A program made the translations under genes and the position numbers. A model generated the notes under the pieces. The model ran no database searches and was not told the origin of the DNA. It saw nothing but the letters and a program-made list of their open reading frames with translations. A stretch of 64,000 bases of DNA from assembly GCF_058153355.1 (NCBI RefSeq), contig NZ_CM177019.1. The stretch is one strand, 5' to 3'. Shown one piece after another: positions 12,160 through 56,769 of this stretch. Every line of letters starts with the position of its first letter. The first letter of the stretch is position 1.

Positions 12160-13407
<1,248 letters not shown>

Positions 13408-13502
13408 CATGCCTGCAATCTGGGAAACCGGGGTAGAAAAAAACTTGCAGGCCATAACAGTATCTACGCAGCTCCTGCAATATATTGAATTTTCATGCTT
13501 TT

Positions 13503-13539: not shown

Positions 13540-13783
13540 AACAAATCGCACTTTGTCAGCAATTTGGCCCCCGTAAAATATAACCATTTAATAAAACCCG
13601 CTAAAAATTATCGATTCATCAATAAATACATCCTCACACCAGACCTTTTTTCACCAATCGACAATCACCATTACGTTTTTTATTCCCCCCCTGCCAAATC
13701 GCTTGCGCACAGTGCTGCTTTGCGGCATTTTTTTAAACAAGCAAACACAACAAGCAACAAATACCAGGTTAACGGAGAAGGTT

Positions 13784-15448
13784 ATGTGTTCAATTTTTGG
13801 CGTATTCGATATCAAAACAGACGCAGTTGAGCTGCGTAAGAAAGCACTCGAGCTGTCACGCCTGATGCGTCATCGTGGCCCGGACTGGTCCGGTATTTAT
13901 GCCAGCGATAACGCCATTCTCGCCCACGAACGTCTGTCCATTGTTGACGTTAACGCGGGGGCGCAACCTCTCTACAACCAACAAAAAACGCATGTGCTGG
14001 CGGTAAACGGTGAAATCTACAACCACCAGGCATTGCGCGCTGAATATGGCGATCGTTACCAGTTCCAGACCGGGTCTGACTGTGAAGTGATCCTCGCGCT
14101 GTATCAGGAAAAAGGGCCGGAATTTCTCGACGATTTGCAGGGCATGTTCGCTTTTGCCCTGTACGACAGCGAAAAAGATGCGTATCTGATTGGTCGCGAC
14201 CATCTGGGGATCATCCCACTGTATATGGGCTATGACGAACATGGTCAGCTGTATGTGGCCTCAGAAATGAAAGCCCTGGTGCCGGTATGCCGCACGATTA
14301 AAGAGTTCCCGGCGGGGAGCTATTTGTGGAGTCAGGACGGCGAAATCCGTTCTTATTATCACCGCGACTGGTTCGACTACGATGCGGTGAAAGATAACGT
14401 GACCGACAAAAACGAGCTGCGTCAGGCGCTGGAAGATTCCGTTAAAAGCCATCTGATGTCTGACGTGCCTTACGGTGTGCTGCTTTCTGGTGGTCTGGAT
14501 TCCTCAATTATTTCCGCGATCACCAAGAAATACGCCGCCCGTCGCGTGGAAGATCAGGAACGCTCTGAAGCCTGGTGGCCGCAGCTGCACTCCTTTGCTG
14601 TAGGTCTGCCGGGTTCACCGGATCTGAAGGCAGCCCAGGAAGTGGCAAACCATCTGGGCACTGTGCATCATGAAATTCACTTCACTGTACAGGAAGGTCT
14701 GGATGCCATCCGCGATGTTATTTACCACATCGAAACCTATGACGTGACGACTATCCGCGCTTCAACGCCGATGTATTTAATGTCGCGTAAGATCAAGGCG
14801 ATGGGCATTAAAATGGTGCTGTCCGGTGAAGGTTCTGATGAAGTGTTTGGCGGTTATCTCTACTTCCACAAAGCACCAAACGCCAAAGAGCTACATGAAG
14901 AGACGGTGCGTAAACTGCTGGCCCTGCATATGTATGATTGCGCGCGTGCCAACAAAGCGATGTCAGCCTGGGGCGTGGAAGCGCGCGTTCCGTTCCTCGA
15001 CAAGAAATTCCTCGACGTGGCAATGCGTATTAACCCACAGGATAAAATGTGCGGTAACGGCAAAATGGAAAAACACATCCTGCGTGAATGTTTTGAAGCG
15101 TATCTGCCTGCAAGCGTGGCCTGGCGGCAGAAAGAGCAGTTTTCCGATGGCGTCGGTTACAGTTGGATAGACACTCTGAAAGAAGTGGCGGCGCAGCAGG
15201 TTTCTGATCAACAACTGGAAACTGCCCGTTTCCGCTTCCCGTACAACACGCCGACCTCAAAAGAAGCGTATCTGTACCGGGAGATCTTTGAAGAACTGTT
15301 CCCGCTACCGAGCGCCGCTGAGTGTGTACCGGGCGGCCCGTCCGTCGCGTGTTCTTCCGCTAAAGCGATTGAATGGGATGAGGCGTTCAAGAAAATGGAC
15401 GATCCGTCTGGTCGTGCGGTTGGCGTTCACCAGTCGGCCTATAAGTAA
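13784..15448 (+). CDS. asnB: Asparagine synthetase B, glutamine-hydrolysing (554 aa)
   Basis: ATG at 13784 after AACGGAGAAGG gives MCSIFGVFDIKTDAVELRKK... (N-terminal Cys nucleophile); correct length. Confidence 0.96.
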   Translation: MCSIFGVFDIKTDAVELRKKALELSRLMRHRGPDWSGIYASDNAILAHERLSIVDVNAGAQPLYNQQKTHVLAVNGEIYNHQALRAEYGDRYQFQTGSDCEVILALYQEKGPEFLDDLQGMFAFALYDSEKDAYLIGRDHLGIIPLYMGYDEHGQLYVASEMKALVPVCRTIKEFPAGSYLWSQDGEIRSYYHRDWFDYDAVKDNVTDKNELRQALEDSVKSHLMSDVPYGVLLSGGLDSSIISAITKKYAARRVEDQERSEAWWPQLHSFAVGLPGSPDLKAAQEVANHLGTVHHEIHFTVQEGLDAIRDVIYHIETYDVTTIRASTPMYLMSRKIKAMGIKMVLSGEGSDEVFGGYLYFHKAPNAKELHEETVRKLLALHMYDCARANKAMSAWGVEARVPFLDKKFLDVAMRINPQDKMCGNGKMEKHILRECFEAYLPASVAWRQKEQFSDGVGYSWIDTLKEVAAQQVSDQQLETARFRFPYNTPTSKEAYLYREIFEELFPLPSAAECVPGGPSVACSSAKAIEWDEAFKKMDDPSGRAVGVHQSAYK

Positions 15449-15462
15449 GAAAGGCGGTACTG

Positions 15463-15490
15463 CCCCGGAGAAATCCGGGGCTGTTTCAGT
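15463..15490 (+). terminator. Candidate terminator downstream of asnB
   Basis: CCCCGGAGAAATCCGGGG hairpin followed by CTGTTTCAGTT (weak T-tract). Confidence 0.45.
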
Positions 15491-15759
15491 TATTGAGCTG
15501 CTTGTTGATTCTCATATGCAGTAAGGAAATGTTCCGGGTTTGCCACATCACTGTTTGACAACTCATCACTGTAGGCCAGTACTTCATAGATTAATTTCCT
15601 ACCACTATTGTTGAATTCCGAATTTCATCCTGTATGACAAAAGAATGGCTGTAGGGTGGGGAAAAAACACAAAGTAAACAATAATTGACGAATATAGCGC
15701 CACGCTGTTCGCAACCTAACCAAACAGTCACTTTCGAGCAATTTTCCTTGAAAAAGAGG

Positions 15760-15788
15760 TTGACGCTGCAAGGCTCTATACGCATAAT
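15760..15788 (+). promoter_or_regulatory. Sigma-70 promoter of the seven-tRNA operon
   Basis: TTGACG (15760-15765), 17-bp spacer, CATAAT (15783-15788), then GC-rich discriminator GCGCCCCGC; AT-rich UP-like stretch upstream. Confidence 0.5.
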
Positions 15789-15827
15789 GCGCCCCGCAAC
15801 GCCGATAAGGTATCGCGAAAAAAAGAT

Positions 15828-15904
15828 GGCTACGTAGCTCAGTTGGTTAGAGCACATCACTCATAATGATGGGGTCACAGGTTCGAATCCCGTCGTAGCC
15901 ACCA
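15828..15904 (+). tRNA. metT: tRNA-Met (elongator, anticodon CAU)
   Basis: GGCTACGTAGCTCAGTTGGTTAGAGCACATCACTCATAATGATGGGG...GTAGCCACCA; CAT in anticodon loop, CCA end. Confidence 0.95.
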
Positions 15905-15912
15905 TCTTTTTT

Positions 15913-15997
15913 GCGGGAGTGGCGAAATTGGTAGACGCACCAGATTTAGGTTCTGGCGCCGCAAGGTGTGCGAGTTCAAGTCTCGCCTCCCGCACCA
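15913..15997 (+). tRNA. leuW: tRNA-Leu (anticodon UAG)
   Basis: GCGGGAGTGGCGAAATTGGTAGACGCACCAGATTTAGGTTCTGG...CCCGCACCA; long variable arm. Confidence 0.95.
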
Positions 15998-16020
15998 TTC
16001 ACCAGAAAGCGTTGTACGGA

Positions 16021-16095
16021 TGGGGTATCGCCAAGCGGTAAGGCACCGGTTTTTGATACCGGCATTCCCTGGTTCGAATCCAGGTACCCCAGCCA
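16021..16095 (+). tRNA. glnU: tRNA-Gln (anticodon UUG)
   Basis: TGGGGTATCGCCAAGCGGTAAGGCACCGGTTTTTGATACCGG...CCCCAGCCA. Confidence 0.95.
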
Positions 16096-16129
16096 TCTTC
16101 TTCGAATAAGCGGTTCACCGCCCGGTTAT

Positions 16130-16204
16130 TGGGGTATCGCCAAGCGGTAAGGCACCGGTTTTTGATACCGGCATTCCCTGGTTCGAATCCAGGTACCCCA
16201 GCCA
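16130..16204 (+). tRNA. glnW: tRNA-Gln (anticodon UUG), second copy
   Basis: Identical to the preceding tRNA-Gln(UUG). Confidence 0.95.
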
Positions 16205-16219
16205 TCGAAGAAACAATCT

Positions 16220-16296
16220 GGCTACGTAGCTCAGTTGGTTAGAGCACATCACTCATAATGATGGGGTCACAGGTTCGAATCCCGTCGTAGCCACCA
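16220..16296 (+). tRNA. metU: tRNA-Met (elongator, anticodon CAU), second copy
   Basis: Identical to the copy at 15828-15904. Confidence 0.95.
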
Positions 16297-16344
16297 AATT
16301 CTGAATGTGTCGAATGCGTTCGGCAAATTCACAAACCAATTTGT

Positions 16345-16419
16345 TGGGGTATCGCCAAGCGGTAAGGCACCGGATTCTGATTCCGGCATTCCGAGGTTCG
16401 AATCCTCGTACCCCAGCCA
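16345..16419 (+). tRNA. glnV: tRNA-Gln (anticodon CUG)
   Basis: TGGGGTATCGCCAAGCGGTAAGGCACCGGATTCTGATTCCGG...; anticodon is wild-type CUG, not the CUA of supE. Confidence 0.95.
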
Positions 16420-16456
16420 ATTTATTCAAGACGCTTATATTGTAAGTGCACCCAGT

Positions 16457-16531
16457 TGGGGTATCGCCAAGCGGTAAGGCACCGGATTCTGATTCCGGCA
16501 TTCCGAGGTTCGAATCCTCGTACCCCAGCCA
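16457..16531 (+). tRNA. glnX: tRNA-Gln (anticodon CUG), second copy
   Basis: Identical to the copy at 16345-16419. Confidence 0.95.
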
Positions 16532-16535
16532 CATT

Positions 16536-16566
16536 AAAAAAACTCGCTTCGGCGAGCTTTTTGCTT
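16536..16566 (+). terminator. Rho-independent terminator of the tRNA operon
   Basis: AAAAAAACTCGCTTCGGCGAGCTTTTTGC: hairpin plus T-run. Confidence 0.7.
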
Positions 16567-16619
16567 TTCTGCGTATATTCAATGTCGAATGCGATGTTGA
16601 CACGTCTTATTCTTCAAAG

Positions 16620-16655
16620 TCGGATGCGACGCTGATGCGTCTTATCCGACCTACA
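16620..16655. repeat. REP element
   Basis: GTCGGATGCGACGCTGATGCGTCTTATCCGACCTAC. Confidence 0.5.
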
Positions 16656-16684
16656 GTTGGCATGCATCCGTCAATGTTGTAAGG

Positions 16685-17860
16685 CTACAACCCTAACGCA
16701 TATTTCAGCGCCTGCCGTTTCAATACGCCAGCACGCTCCGCCGCCATTAACCCGAGATTACGCATAAAACGCAGTGGCGGCAGATTATTGCTGAATCCGG
16801 CATAAAACAGATCCATACCGCTTTGCATAATGAAGTTATCCGCCATACGCCGCATCTGGTAACGCTTGAGGACAGGATAACTGGCCCACGCTTCACCGTA
16901 GCTGCGGGCATTCACCAGAACGTCAATCAGCGCATCAACATCGCGATAACCGAGGTTAACCCCCTGCCCCGCCAACGGATGAATGGTGTGCGCGGCATCG
17001 CCCACCAGCGCAAGCCCTGGTTGCACATACTGCAACGCATGGCGGCGCGTCAGCGGAAACGCACCAGCGGCGAGTGGCATCACGTACCCAAGACGCGACG
17101 GGAAATGCTTCGCGATTTCCGCCTGTAACTGCGCCATATTCATATTCTGCAACTGGCGAATGCGTGCCGGAGAGTCATACCACACCAGCGATGCCCAGTT
17201 ATCAAACAGCGGCAGAAACGCACGAGGTCCATCCGGGGTAAATTGCTGCCAGGTGCTGTCGCCGGGATCGTTCTCACACTGTACGCTAATCAACATACAC
17301 GACTGTGCATACTGCCAGGCATGAACGCCAATTCCCGCCATCTGCCGCACCTGCGAATTTGCGCCGTCGGCACCAATCACCAGCTTCGCGCGGATCGTTT
17401 CACCGCCCTTCAGTTCCAGCTCCTGAAGATCATTATGGCGATGCAGCGCAATCAGCGAGCCTGGCACACGTAACGTTACTTTCGGATGCGCTTCCAGCGC
17501 CTGCCACAGCGCCTGTTGCAGGACAGTGTTTTCCACCATATAGCCAAGCAACGGCAGCTTCAATTCGGCTGCATCAAACACCACATGCGCCGTTTCCCAC
17601 TCCCACGTTTCCAGTCTGCGATAAGGATGGCAACGCATGGCCTGTACCGCGTCCCAGACGCCTAAACCTTTAAGCAATGATACCGAAGCCGCACTAATCG
17701 CCGAGATCCGCACGTCAGGCTGGCTGTCAGCGACAAACGGTGCAGGTTGGGCATGTTCGATAACCGTTACCGAAAATCCGTGCTGAGCCAGTCCCAGCGC
17801 CAGTGCGCCGCCGACCATTCCTCCGCCGACAATGGCAATTTCCGTTGGTTGATTTGTCAT
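16685..17860 (-). CDS. ubiF: UbiF, ubiquinone-biosynthesis FAD-dependent hydroxylase (391 aa)
   Basis: MTNQPTEIAIVGGGMVGGALALGL... (FAD-binding GxGxxG); ATG at 17860 with AGGA RBS (ORF track uses upstream TTG). Confidence 0.93.
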   Translation of the reverse strand: MTNQPTEIAIVGGGMVGGALALGLAQHGFSVTVIEHAQPAPFVADSQPDVRISAISAASVSLLKGLGVWDAVQAMRCHPYRRLETWEWETAHVVFDAAELKLPLLGYMVENTVLQQALWQALEAHPKVTLRVPGSLIALHRHNDLQELELKGGETIRAKLVIGADGANSQVRQMAGIGVHAWQYAQSCMLISVQCENDPGDSTWQQFTPDGPRAFLPLFDNWASLVWYDSPARIRQLQNMNMAQLQAEIAKHFPSRLGYVMPLAAGAFPLTRRHALQYVQPGLALVGDAAHTIHPLAGQGVNLGYRDVDALIDVLVNARSYGEAWASYPVLKRYQMRRMADNFIMQSGMDLFYAGFSNNLPPLRFMRNLGLMAAERAGVLKRQALKYALGL

Positions 17861-18005
17861 GGTCAATCATCCTGTTAGCAATATGCTTTAAGTTTACAGG
17901 ATTTTTACCCCCAAGGGCTGATAACGCTCATACTGGTCACAACGGCAGCAAAGCATTACACTATGCGCCCTGCATTCCTGGCTACTATTTCGCAAGAGCA
18001 AGTCG

Positions 18006-23722: not shown

Positions 23723-23750
23723 GGGGCGTGATTATCATGCCCCTTTTTTT
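23723..23750. terminator. Bidirectional terminator at the convergent 3' ends of lnt and the rhomboid gene
   Basis: GGGGCGTGATTATCATGCCCC hairpin followed by TTTTTTT; overlaps the rhomboid gene stop codon. Confidence 0.6.
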
Positions 23751-25626
23751 ACGGTTCAGGGATACAAGCCACATCGCCATATTGGGGATGCCGAATAATT
23801 GCCTGCGGATCAAGCGAGCGCGTCCTGTCCATTTGGATTAACCCGTTCTTCGCCATAACAAATATCTTTCTACCATCCGCTGAAAAACGAAGATGATTAA
23901 CGTAGCTGGCAGGATAAACGCCAATAATCTGCCCGGCATTAATATTGAGCAGGATGACATAACCTTGCAGGCCATATGACACCAACGCTAAATACTGACC
24001 GTCCGGGCTAATACCCTCAACAGAATAAACGCTCCTGCTACACCATTGCGTCATAATGCTGGCTTGTTGATCCCCTGTGCTTATACGTGAAATCCCCTGA
24101 CTATCGGCAAAAATAACCTCACCATTTTTTGGTCGGAATCCCATCGCAGAAACGACACCACGCGCATCACCTGCGGGAAAGTCTTCTTTCTGATGCGTGA
24201 TGGTATTGATCCGCACGATGTTACCTCTGCCTGCTCCTGGAACCAGTAATGTTTTTTCATCCGGGGAAAGTGCCATAACCCAGGCGCCTGGTTTACCGCT
24301 CGTCCCCGTCCCGTCGTATTTCTCCAGTGCGATATCCGCCACATGCTGATAAGTCACCAGATCAATCGCTGACACACTATTACTGGTGCGATTCATCACC
24401 CAGGCTTTTGTGCCATCACGCGAGAGGATAAGGCTGTCAGGATGGGCGCCGGTGGTAATCGACTGAATAATCTCCCCCGTCGCCACGTTAACGACCGATA
24501 ATGCATTCGCTTCAAATGAAGTCGCATACAGCAACTTTTCATCGGGGCTTAACACCAGCGATCTGACGCCCTGATCTTTACAGCCACCACAATGTTTGAC
24601 TGACTTTTCTTTCGCTATGGGCGCTGTAAAGGTATGCAGGATTTTCTTTTGTCCGAGGTCGAAAACAACAATACTGTTCGTGTTTTCAATTGCGGCATAT
24701 AACGTATTACCATCCCGATTGATCGCCATATCATGGATATCGGCAATCTCAGCGAGCAAATCACCACTGGCCTGTTCACGACTTACCGGAGCGGATAATG
24801 TTTCCCTGAGGGCATTGCGTTCCTCCGCTAACTGCTGCTTTTTATGCCGTCGCTCTTGTTCAATCTCCTGCGGATAAAACTCTTCACGCAGGCTTTGCCT
24901 GACCTGCAAAACTGATTCATCAATCTGCTGCTGCACAAGCCAGATAGCCCCGGTCAGTAGAAGACTACCCGCAACAATAATCCCACCTTCCGTAACGAGC
25001 CGGTTTTGCCCAGATAAACGCGCACTCAGCCAACCCAACGCTCCACCTGCCATCAGGCCGCCAATGTGGCAAGCGTTATCTATTCCTGCTTGCCGGGCAC
25101 CATACAACAGTGTCAGCGCCACCATACCCAACAGAGAAAATACTCGCCGCTGGTTTTTATGGTGTGTACCCGCACCTGAAGAAAGCTGTGTTGCTATCGC
25201 AGCGCCAGCTATTCCCATAATTGCCCCGGATGCCCCAACGCTGATGACTATCTGCTCACTTTCGCGTAACGCATAACAGGCGCTGATGAGCCCACCAAAG
25301 ATGCCGGAGAATAACCAGATAATCAGGAGTCGCCATTTCCCCAGTATCCGTTCCGCCACTGTCCCCACCACCAGGAGTGCAAACATATTCATCAGCAAAT
25401 GGGAAAAACTACTGTGCAGAAAAACACTGCTCAATAAGCGCCAGGGTTCACCCGACAACGTGAGAGAGGCAACGTTAGCGCCGAGATGGATGAGTGCGGA
25501 TTGATCGACTTCTTCATAACTCATCCATTGTGCGAGGTAACAAAATATCCCAACACATAGCGCAAAAAGGATCAGGGTTATTGCGGGTAATTGAACATTT
25601 AACGGCTTAACCGAAGATGCAGACAT
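23749..25626 (-). CDS. Rhomboid-family intramembrane serine protease fused to a C-terminal YVTN-type beta-propeller domain (about 625 aa)
   Basis: ATG at 25626 after AAGGAAG gives MSASSVKPLNV...; rhomboid motifs WRLLSSVFLHSSFSHLLMNM, GASGAIMG (Ser) and ACHIGGLMAG (His); 7th TM helix, coiled-coil linker, then repeated ...LYAAIENTNSIVVFDL / LYATSFEANALSVVNVATG / AWVMNRTSNSVSAIDL blades. Confidence 0.8.
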   Translation of the reverse strand: MSASSVKPLNVQLPAITLILFALCVGIFCYLAQWMSYEEVDQSALIHLGANVASLTLSGEPWRLLSSVFLHSSFSHLLMNMFALLVVGTVAERILGKWRLLIIWLFSGIFGGLISACYALRESEQIVISVGASGAIMGIAGAAIATQLSSGAGTHHKNQRRVFSLLGMVALTLLYGARQAGIDNACHIGGLMAGGALGWLSARLSGQNRLVTEGGIIVAGSLLLTGAIWLVQQQIDESVLQVRQSLREEFYPQEIEQERRHKKQQLAEERNALRETLSAPVSREQASGDLLAEIADIHDMAINRDGNTLYAAIENTNSIVVFDLGQKKILHTFTAPIAKEKSVKHCGGCKDQGVRSLVLSPDEKLLYATSFEANALSVVNVATGEIIQSITTGAHPDSLILSRDGTKAWVMNRTSNSVSAIDLVTYQHVADIALEKYDGTGTSGKPGAWVMALSPDEKTLLVPGAGRGNIVRINTITHQKEDFPAGDARGVVSAMGFRPKNGEVIFADSQGISRISTGDQQASIMTQWCSRSVYSVEGISPDGQYLALVSYGLQGYVILLNINAGQIIGVYPASYVNHLRFSADGRKIFVMAKNGLIQMDRTRSLDPQAIIRHPQYGDVACIPEP

Positions 25627-26081
25627 AAGGTGATTCTTCCTTGAAAAGACAGGTAAAAAAGCATTTTTCCCGTGTGCAGTTATCATCCCGGCAAACGTCC
25701 CATACCGAAAAGTTAACTCTGTCCGAAATATGACTTTTTCAGCCTGAAATTACAATCGTAATTAATTCACCCCTAAGTATTTTTTGGCATGTAAGTTGCT
25801 TTATTTACTGTGTAAGCAATGAAATCAGCCGCAACGCAACCGGGTTGCACCAACACAAATCAGCGGTAGCACCAAAAAGGTGCGGTTTAAGAGTTTTGCT
25901 TCGGAATGGTGCGGCGCATCTCGCAAAAACAAACAATAAAACATCAATATCTTTACATTTAACCAAACTAAATGTTACCTAACAAACACAACACTGCACA
26001 ATAAAGTTGCAGATGATAACAACACAAACACTCACAACGGGTATCCATGCGTTCTTAACGCAGAAGATAAAGGAGTTGGAT

Positions 26082-26990
26082 ATGCAATTACGTAAACCTG
26101 CCACAGCAATCCTGGCCCTGGCGCTTTCCGCAGGACTGGCACAGGCAGATGACGCCGCCCCGGCAGCAGGCAGTACGCTGGACAAAATCGCCAAAAACGG
26201 TGTGATTGTCGTCGGTCACCGTGAATCTTCAGTACCTTTCTCTTATTACGACAATCAGCAAAAAGTGGTGGGTTACTCGCAGGATTACTCCAACGCCATT
26301 GTTGAAGCAGTGAAAAAGAAACTCAACAAACCGGACTTGCAGGTGAAATTGATTCCGATCACCTCACAAAACCGTATTCCGCTGCTGCAAAACGGCACTT
26401 TCGATTTTGAATGTGGTTCTACCACCAACAACGTCGAACGCCAGAAACAGGCGGCTTTCTCCGACACTATTTTCGTGGTCGGTACGCGCCTGCTGACAAA
26501 AAAAGGCGGCGATATTAAAGATTTTGCCGATCTGAAAGACAAAGCCGTCGTAGTCACTTCCGGCACCACCTCTGAAGTTTTGCTCAACAAACTGAATGAA
26601 GAGCAAAAAATGAACATGCGCATCATCAGCGCCAAAGATCACGGTGACTCTTTCCGCACCCTGGAAAGCGGTCGTGCCGTTGCCTTTATGATGGATGACG
26701 CTCTGTTAGCCGGTGAGCGAGCGAAAGCGAAGAAACCAGACAACTGGGAAATCGTCGGCAAGCCGCAGTCTCAGGAAGCCTACGGTTGCATGTTGCGTAA
26801 AGACGATCCGCAGTTCAAAAAGCTGATGGATGACACTATCGCTCAGGTGCAGACCTCCGGTGAAGCGGAAAAATGGTTTGATAAGTGGTTCAAAAATCCA
26901 ATTCCGCCGAAAAACCTGAACATGAATTTCGAACTGTCGGACGAAATGAAAGCACTGTTCAAAGAACCGAATGACAAGGCACTGAACTAA
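26082..26990 (+). CDS. gltI: Glutamate/aspartate periplasmic binding protein GltI (302 aa)
   Basis: ATG at 26082 after AAGGAG gives MQLRKPATAILALALSAGLAQA signal peptide; correct length. Confidence 0.95.
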   Translation: MQLRKPATAILALALSAGLAQADDAAPAAGSTLDKIAKNGVIVVGHRESSVPFSYYDNQQKVVGYSQDYSNAIVEAVKKKLNKPDLQVKLIPITSQNRIPLLQNGTFDFECGSTTNNVERQKQAAFSDTIFVVGTRLLTKKGGDIKDFADLKDKAVVVTSGTTSEVLLNKLNEEQKMNMRIISAKDHGDSFRTLESGRAVAFMMDDALLAGERAKAKKPDNWEIVGKPQSQEAYGCMLRKDDPQFKKLMDDTIAQVQTSGEAEKWFDKWFKNPIPPKNLNMNFELSDEMKALFKEPNDKALN

Positions 26991-27146
26991 TTACAAGAAC
27001 CAGGGGCGGAAATTCCAGCCCTCTCGATTGTTACGTAGCACGGACAGACTATACGCCTGATGGTCGTTCCCCATCGGGCCTGAAAACCGCAATACGCTGG
27101 GTAACAATCTTCGAGGGTAGCAGTTAACGCTGCTACCCTTTTTTTT
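26991..27146 (+). ncRNA. sroC: SroC sRNA region (processed from the gltI-gltJ intergenic part of the gltIJKL mRNA)
   Basis: Location only: intergenic segment ending at the intrinsic terminator; SroC is known to derive from this position; sequence identity not verified from memory. Confidence 0.45.
27115..27146 (+). terminator. Intra-operon rho-independent terminator between gltI and gltJ
   Basis: GGGTAGCAGTTAACGCTGCTACCC hairpin followed by TTTTTTTT. Confidence 0.7.
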
Positions 27147-27159
27147 CTGGAGTAGATTT

Positions 27160-56337: not shown

Positions 56338-56367
56338 AAAAAAAACCCGCTGATTAAGCGGGTTTTG
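56338..56367. terminator. Bidirectional terminator between crcB and cspE
   Basis: AAAAAAACCCGCTGATTAAGCGGGTTTTGAATT. Confidence 0.7.
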
Positions 56368-56385
56368 AATTCTTGCTGACGTATC

Positions 56386-56595
56386 TTACAGAGCGATTAC
56401 GTTTGCAGCAGAAGGGCCTTTGGCACCGTTAGTGATTTCGAACTCTACGCGCTGACCTTCAGCAAGAGTTTTAAAACCATTAGTCTGGATTGCAGAGAAG
56501 TGTACGAACACGTCTTTGCTGCCGTCTTCCGGAGTAATGAAACCGAATCCTTTGGACTCATTAAACCACTTAACGTTACCTTTAATCTTAGACAT
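56386..56595 (-). CDS. cspE: Cold-shock-domain protein CspE (69 aa)
   Basis: [37 protein letters not shown]... (RNP1/RNP2 motifs). Confidence 0.95.
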
Positions 56596-56769
56596 CAAAA
56601 TTACCTTTACATGAAAAATAGACACAAATGCTGTGTCGGTTACCAGTACACCAATTGTGGTACGCTTTGTCCAGTGCAACTTTACTAAAAAGTGATAAAA
56701 GTCGCGTTATTTTTGATGTTAATTATTTTACTCATTGATTTTAAAGAAGTTACTAAAATTTCATTTGTC

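Follow-up and report, generated by a model that had tools for sequence, protein, structure and literature searches.

The subject of this analysis is a compact array of seven tRNA genes in a stretch of 64,000 nucleotides (nt) from contig NZ_CM177019.1 of the NCBI RefSeq assembly GCF_058153355.1; the whole stretch is referred to below as the window, and positions are counted from its first letter. Taken as a whole, the array is best explained as the known seven-tRNA metT operon of Escherichia coli, and we put the probability of this reading at about 96%. The identity of the locus is thus already known, and one more E. coli-like genome carrying the metT operon adds nothing new; the array serves here as a landmark, by which the window can be assigned to the asnB-ubiF region of an E. 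coli-type chromosome. Of minor importance are a cross-species footprint of the promoter and a terminator change private to this strain. The first-pass annotation of this DNA had outlined an operon at 15760-16566, an interval whose two ends coincide exactly with the start of the -35 hexamer and the last base of the terminator T-run.

According to ARAGORN, the entire window contains exactly seven tRNA genes, all of them on the plus strand between 15828 and 16531, and all seven are matched by the Rfam family RF00005 (57.6-71.1 bits, compared with a gathering score of 29). The genes are as follows.

15828-15904, plus strand: metT, elongator tRNA-Met (CAU), anticodon CAT at 15862-15864; ARAGORN and Rfam, 100% identical to K-12 b0673.
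15913-15997, plus strand: leuW, tRNA-Leu (UAG), 85 nt with a long variable arm, anticodon TAG at 15947-15949; ARAGORN and Rfam, equal to K-12 b0672.
16021-16095, plus strand: glnU, tRNA-Gln (UUG), anticodon TTG at 16053-16055; ARAGORN and Rfam, equal to K-12 b0670.
16130-16204, plus strand: glnW, tRNA-Gln (UUG), anticodon TTG at 16162-16164; ARAGORN, Rfam and K-12 alignment.
16220-16296, plus strand: metU, elongator tRNA-Met (CAU), anticodon CAT at 16254-16256; ARAGORN, Rfam and K-12 alignment.
16345-16419, plus strand: glnV, tRNA-Gln (CUG), wild-type anticodon CTG at 16377-16379; ARAGORN, Rfam and K-12 alignment.
16457-16531, plus strand: glnX, tRNA-Gln (CUG), wild-type anticodon CTG at 16489-16491; ARAGORN, Rfam and K-12 alignment.

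The order given by the first-pass annotation (Met, Leu-UAG, two Gln-UUG, Met, two Gln-CUG) was obtained again with both ARAGORN and Rfam, and a check of the anticodons with ARAGORN and a script revealed none that differs from it. Its figure of 0.7 kb agrees with the 704 base pairs (bp) measured by script from the first to the last tRNA gene, with successive spacers of 8, 23, 34, 15, 48 and 37 nt. The CCA end is encoded in all seven genes, and pairwise comparison showed that metT is identical to metU, glnU to glnW, and glnV to glnX. Open reading frames (ORFs) over the operon, on either strand, were only mechanical ones overlapping the tRNA genes, none of them credible. A search of 14500-18000 for other RNA families at permissive thresholds gave only sub-threshold matches, to plastid ycf2 (antisense to the tRNAs) and to the REP-derived naRNA4.

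In the K-12 annotation, asnB and ubiF likewise enclose these seven genes in this order, and the position is also found in E. coli EC42405 and ETEC4079. The window as a whole is collinear with 649.9-711.7 kb of the K-12 chromosome in reverse orientation, at 96-98% identity. Global alignment across 15400-16900 revealed 38 differences from K-12, none of which falls in a tRNA gene or in the -35 and -10 hexamers; they are located in the end of asnB, the spacer between asnB and the promoter, the leader, the inter-tRNA spacers, the terminator and the sequence downstream. The array was found in 5424 of the 5426 complete E. coli genomes, and 5350 of these 5424 matching genomes contain 80% or more of 15700-16600. 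The closest genome is that of EC42405, with 99.3-99.6% identity in this region, which places the source among E. coli-type chromosomes outside this set of complete genomes.

The classical suppressors supE and supB map to the metT operon. Both Gln-CUG genes of the window read CTG, so the wild-type anticodon reported for them earlier stands, and the amber anticodon CUA of the supE (glnV44) type was found by ARAGORN and the script in neither. XL1-Blue, a known supE44 strain, served as the positive control: ARAGORN reports CTA in one of its two Gln-CUG copies. The XL1-Blue CTA sits in the distal of the two identical genes (859-933 of that locus), a position named glnX, not glnV, in the K-12 annotation, and the gene carrying it has no tRNA annotation in RefSeq.

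The number of duplicated genes varies among relatives. ETEC4079, itself an E. coli, has six tRNA genes with a single Gln-CUG. A scan for orthologs, with one genome per species and with the sequence that joins the end of metT to the beginning of leuW as the query, recovered 120 Enterobacterales loci, 92 of them with complete clusters. The exact seven-gene order was the commonest arrangement (34 of the 92 complete clusters); the second Gln-CUG gene was absent, leaving a single one, in 27, and the second Gln-UUG gene likewise in 8, three Gln-CUG genes were present in 3, and the remaining 20 showed rarer forms. This is the pattern that recombinational gain and loss of identical tandem copies would produce.

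A promoter scan of 15400-16900 returned one site, TTGACG-17 nt-CATAAT at 15760-15788, which matches the consensus at 10 of 12 positions and sits 39 nt 5' of the first tRNA gene. The elements of the promoter, of the sequence upstream of it and of the leader are the following.

15707-15721, plus strand: weak candidate Fis site GTTCGCAACCTAACC, centred at about -82 from the predicted start and fitting the degenerate pattern GNNYRNNWNNYRNNC.
15751-15755, plus strand: A5 tract on the 5' side of the -35 hexamer, putatively a proximal UP-element-like sequence, 99-100% conserved in 113 distinct upstream sequences, the neighbouring columns being variable.
15760-15765, plus strand: -35 hexamer TTGACG, found by the scan, identical in K-12; TTGAC[G/T/C] in 113 of 115 related loci.
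15783-15788, plus strand: -10 hexamer CATAAT, found by the scan, after a 17-nt spacer (15766-15782).
15789-15795, plus strand: GC-rich discriminator GCGCCCC, at least 98% invariant across related loci.
15796-15827, plus strand: predicted transcription start at G 15796 (by analogy with tyrT) and the 32-nt 5' leader GCAACGCCGATAAGGTATCGCGAAAAAAAGAT, which would be removed by RNase P.

Among the 115 loci with enough upstream sequence, 113 have TTGAC[G/T/C]-17 nt-[C/G]ATAAT-GCGCCCCG at 37-41 nt before the first tRNA gene. Column conservation was computed from 113 distinct sequences anchored on a fixed TTGAC and ATAAT, all other columns being free. The 17-nt spacer drifts, the majority base reaching 41-74% in most columns, and the discriminator next to it is almost fixed; the pattern is the clear phylogenetic footprint left by a working promoter. 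The claim of a single promoter is in accord with the one site of the scan and with the conservation in 113 of 115 loci, and it fits the full-length transcript seen in K-12 (PMC2241853).

The metT promoter has the near-consensus sigma-70 hexamers and the spacing of 16-17 nt that characterize stable-RNA promoters. It reads CATAAT-GCGCCCCGC-AACGCCGATAAGG, and the K-12 tyrT promoter reads TATGAT-GCGCCCCGC-TTCCCGATAAGG, the nine bases after the -10 hexamer being the same. K-12 rrnB P1 reads TATAAT-GCGCCACC, with a discriminator that resembles that of metT (GCGCCAC compared with GCGCCCC). Both tyrT and rrnB P1 are classic stringently controlled promoters. A GC-rich discriminator is a hallmark of stable-RNA promoters with short-lived open complexes, which are shut down by ppGpp and DksA in amino-acid starvation and follow the growth rate. 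The GC-rich discriminator of the first-pass annotation is thus present as GCGCCCC at 15789-15795, within the GCGCCCCGC matching K-12 tyrT, and "stringent-type" holds as a sequence-level description, by resemblance to tyrT and rrnB P1. G/C-rich discriminators have been linked both to stringent control and to supercoiling sensitivity (PMC8422995), and the regulators tabulated for the metT operon are Fis as positive and ppGpp and Lrp as negative (PMC10100675). Control of the operon by ppGpp, Fis and Lrp may be expected in this strain. The candidate Fis site has a conserved outer G (97%), outer C (96%) and internal A (91%) in the 113 distinct related sequences, and chance alone would yield a match to its pattern GNNYRNNWNNYRNNC about once in 512 positions of each strand.

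The predicted start at G 15796 was placed from the start site of tyrT, and transcription in this strain probably begins there. It gives the 32-nt leader, in accordance with a metT species of about 125 nt that retains the 5' leader in RNase P-deficient rnpA49 cells of K-12 (PMC2241853). The discriminator together with the first 11 transcribed bases (GCGCCCCGCAACGCCGAT) is at least 96% invariant in the 113 distinct sequences. The longer block GCGCCCCGCAACGCCGAT(G)AAGG at 15789-15813 spans -7 to about +18 and hardly varies across more than 100 Enterobacterales species, and the rest of the leader drifts; conservation thus reaches about +18 (GCAACGCCGAT(G)AAGG), well past a normal discriminator. 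A conserved RNA structure of the leader was considered as the cause and rejected: RNAalifold folded 46 distinct leaders into only a 3-bp hairpin (GCC/GGU) of -2.8 kcal/mol with one compensatory change. The early transcribed block could govern promoter escape, pausing or sensitivity to DksA and ppGpp, or be a protein-binding site. That it forms a distinct, uncharacterised regulatory element common to some tRNA promoters, and not a neutral leader, is a conjecture to which we give little credence.

Transcription would end directly after the last tRNA gene, at the following element.

16536-16566, plus strand: Rho-independent terminator, consisting of an A-run, the stem CTCGC, loop TTCG and stem GCGAG (16543-16556), then CTTTTTGCTT.

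By scan and folding, the hairpin at 16543-16556 is followed by CTTTTTGC and lies 11 nt 3' of glnX. The scan count of terminators was 4, compared with 1.4 in shuffled sequences, which is mildly above expectation. A hairpin with a T-run lies at most 13 nt from the last tRNA gene in 77 of 100 related loci, and its stems vary yet stay complementary (GCTCGC/GCGAGC, GCCCGC/GCGGGC, GCCCAC/GTGGGC, CCCTACT/AGTAGGG). It is this comparative evidence, and not the shuffle test, that supports a terminator function. The single terminator of the first-pass annotation was therefore recovered both by the scan and by conservation in related loci, with the qualification that its stem is weakened by an A at 16542. 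REP-type palindromes are located at 16583-16651, outside the operon, between the terminator and the convergent ubiF (minus strand, stop near 16685). They account for the sub-threshold match to naRNA4 (32.7 bits, compared with a gathering score of 59.5), and "REP60ab" is listed after the metT operon in PMC10100675.

Several observations weigh against the reading of the array given above. The count of promoter-like sites, one, is not above the shuffle mean of 2.3; comparative conservation and position were relied upon for this reason. At the other end, the fold of the 45-nt terminator is not significant compared with shuffles (z = -1.25). Position 16542 is A in the window and G in K-12, EC42405, XL1-Blue, ETEC4079 and E. 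albertii, and the G-to-A change deprives the stem of a G-C pair at its base, the predicted energy of the 45 nt being -11.2 kcal/mol compared with -17.9 kcal/mol in K-12. Over 16510-16578 no exact copy of the window sequence occurs among 5394 complete E. coli genomes, the best ones differing by one base; the A is either a mutation private to this strain or an error of sequencing or base-calling. With the stem weakened and the fold non-significant, termination here may be less efficient than in K-12, and the change might let more transcription run on towards the convergent ubiF and alter the processing by RNase P. Control by ppGpp, Fis and Lrp rests on a secondary table (PMC10100675), and a search of the available literature library found no primary paper on the start site of the metT operon or on its control by ppGpp. 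Finally, the status of the elongator Met, Gln and Leu-UAG genes as the only copies is extrapolated from K-12 to a strain represented here by one 64-kb window.

By analogy with K-12, the operon would be expressed as follows. Sigma-70 RNA polymerase would start at the single strong promoter, TTGACG-17 nt-CATAAT with the GCGCCCC discriminator, at the predicted G 15796, and produce one precursor comprising the 32-nt leader and seven tRNAs (about 0.77 kb by coordinates), halting at the Rho-independent hairpin and T-run 11 nt 3' of glnX. Northern blots of K-12 revealed such a full-length transcript, consisting of the leader, the seven tRNAs and the terminator (PMC2241853), and a single polycistronic precursor is likewise expected in this strain, its signals being identical to those of K-12. 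RNase E would take off the terminator and split the distal glnV and glnX units, as in K-12, where it is mainly responsible for both steps and where a terminator left in place inhibits processing by RNase P (PMC2241853). RNase P would cut each mature 5' end, so that the upstream five tRNAs separate, which is how they are freed in K-12 (PMC2241853). The 3' exonucleases RNase T, PH and D, which finish the 3' ends in K-12 (PMC2241853), would trim the products to the genome-encoded CCA.

The sequence and annotation of the operon are long established, and work on it goes back decades. In K-12 it supplies all elongator tRNA-Met, all tRNA-Gln (four genes) and the only tRNA-Leu (UAG), metT and metU being the only elongator tRNA-Met genes (PMC6265465). 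The transcription unit could not be deleted without a complementing plasmid and is essential because all copies of metTU, leuW, glnUW and glnVX are located there (PMC11480407). Both the processing and the essentiality described for K-12 presumably hold in this particular strain as well.

The alternatives concern the number of transcription units, the identity of the CAT genes, the origin of the array and the regulation of its promoter. Internal promoters before glnV or glnX, or read-through from asnB, might contribute substantially to the tRNA output: asnB (13703-15448) is co-oriented with the array, its terminator-like hairpin at 15462-15481 has only a modest T-run, and the spacers of 48 and 37 nt, with 62-65% A+T, leave room for part of a promoter. 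However, the scan of 15400-16900 gave no second site that agrees with the promoter consensus at 9 or more of 12 positions. The precursors that accumulate in K-12 keep the 5' leader and begin at metT, and the K-12 species starting at metU is an RNase P product, a probe upstream of metU not hybridising (PMC2241853); the leader-bearing metT species of about 125 nt fits a start some 33 nt upstream, not read-through from asnB. A substantial contribution from several units is thus very unlikely, and a single unit starting at the metT promoter remains the preferred reading. A CAT anticodon alone cannot separate elongator tRNA-Met from initiator tRNA-fMet and from tRNA-Ile2 (in which C34 is converted to lysidine), and ARAGORN labels all three as Met. 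Initiators are marked by a C1xA72 mismatch and by an anticodon stem with three G-C pairs in a row. Neither CAT gene has these features: according to the script, G1 pairs with C72, and CAUCA/UGAUG forms the anticodon stem, without GGG/CCC. Both genes are, moreover, 100% identical to K-12 metT and metU, experimentally defined elongator genes (PMC6265465). This identity rules out the initiator and tRNA-Ile2 assignments, whose residual probability is minute, and metT and metU are taken as elongator genes.

The origin of the array as a horizontally acquired tRNA island of a phage or integrative element, instead of a core operon, would find some ground in the occurrence of compact multi-tRNA arrays in phages and in the mobile DNA nearby, a copy of IS621 2.3 kb upstream. 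It is ruled out by synteny and distribution and is practically negligible, since the asnB-ubiF location is the same in K-12, EC42405 and ETEC4079, the array occurs in 5424 of 5426 complete E. coli genomes, many Enterobacterales genera carry it with the same promoter, and no integrase or phage genes flank it. More weight, though still little, is due to the proposal that the promoter looks stringent but is not controlled by ppGpp and DksA, the GC block owing its conservation, for instance, to a role in the leader RNA, in promoter escape or in the sensing of supercoiling. Against this, the stringently controlled tyrT promoter has the very same discriminator, and an RNA-structure reason for the block is weak in view of the poor consensus fold of the leader (3 bp, -2.8 kcal/mol, one compensatory change); ppGpp is, besides, tabulated as a negative regulator of the operon (PMC10100675). 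The proposal draws on the conservation up to about +18, beyond a normal discriminator, on the supercoiling sensitivity that GC-rich discriminators confer independently of ppGpp (PMC8422995), and on the outcome of the literature search, in which no primary ppGpp experiment on the metT promoter was found. On balance we regard it as improbable, and a core metT operon with a stringent-type promoter is retained.

Several features of the surrounding sequence deserve mention. A complete IS621 element, which belongs to the IS110 family with bridge-RNA-guided recombinases, occupies 12186-13463 (plus strand). Its ORF (12378-13358) encodes 326 amino acids, 322 of them identical to PDB 8wt6, "IS621 transposase", with both IS110 Pfam domains; its bridge RNA is expected to come from the left end, 12186-12377. 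This insert of 1279 bp is absent at this site in K-12. It lies between umpH and asnB, inside a REP sequence, where GCCTGATGCGCTACGCTTATCAGGCCT precedes the element and ACG follows it; the insertion site is the natural target ATCAGGCCTAC, cut after the CT core (PMC11208160).

Between asnB and metT, a gene remnant at 15493-15579 (minus strand) corresponds to the last 29 codons, 93% identical, of a gene for a 145-amino-acid protein with a hydrophobic, signal-peptide-like N-terminus and no Pfam match. The E. coli strains EC42405 and SCPM-O-B-8794, as well as Superficieibacter and Pseudocitrobacter, retain the whole gene between asnB and metT, and a deletion of about 427 bp is common to the window and K-12. 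Farther away, between lnt and gltI, a 645-amino-acid ORF at 23749-25686 (minus strand) combines a rhomboid protease domain at the N-terminus with beta-propeller repeats at the C-terminus; K-12 carries IS5D at this place. The Rfam scan at gathering thresholds revealed the small RNA sroC at 26986-27148 (plus strand, 173.9 bits) and a match to the cspA thermoregulator model at 56338-56751 (minus strand, 123.8 bits), roughly where the K-12 alignment puts cspE. On the K-12 map, the operon has glnS (Gln-tRNA ligase) at a distance of about 9 kb and leuS at one of about 22 kb, and the tRNA-modifying gene miaB and the RNase gene ybeY are less than 4 kb from it; translation-related genes thus cluster around the operon in K-12, in a gene order that is already known.

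The closest known system is the metT operon of K-12 itself. The tRNA sequences and the -35 and -10 hexamers are 100% identical to it, and the discriminator, the asnB and ubiF neighbours, and the hairpin and loop of the terminator are the same. The 11 differences are distributed over the leader, the spacers and the terminator; among them, one base is missing from the A-run of the leader and one from the T-run between metT and leuW, and the spacer between metU and glnV has one extra base. The secG-leuU transcript follows the same logic as the K-12 metT operon, in that its Rho-independent terminator is removed by RNase E or RNase G before efficient processing by RNase P (PMC2241853). It differs in being an mRNA-tRNA hybrid with one tRNA on which RNase G also acts, whereas removal of the metT terminator appeared to be independent of RNase G (PMC2241853).

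Among promoters, that of tyrT (the tyrTV operon) is the nearest likeness: it shares GCGCCCCGC after the -10 hexamer, and CCGATAAGG in the early transcribed region is also common to both. Regulation of tyrT has been shown experimentally. Its hexamers differ (TTTACA and TATGAT, compared with TTGACG and CATAAT in metT), metT has one base more between GCGCCCCGC and CCGATAAGG, and the genes downstream of the two promoters are different. The orthologous operons in other Enterobacterales, including Yersinia, Photorhabdus, Pantoea, Dickeya, Proteus and Edwardsiella, likewise start with Met-Leu-Gln and have the promoter, the discriminator and a terminator directly after the last tRNA gene; they differ from the operon described here in the copy number of the duplicated units.

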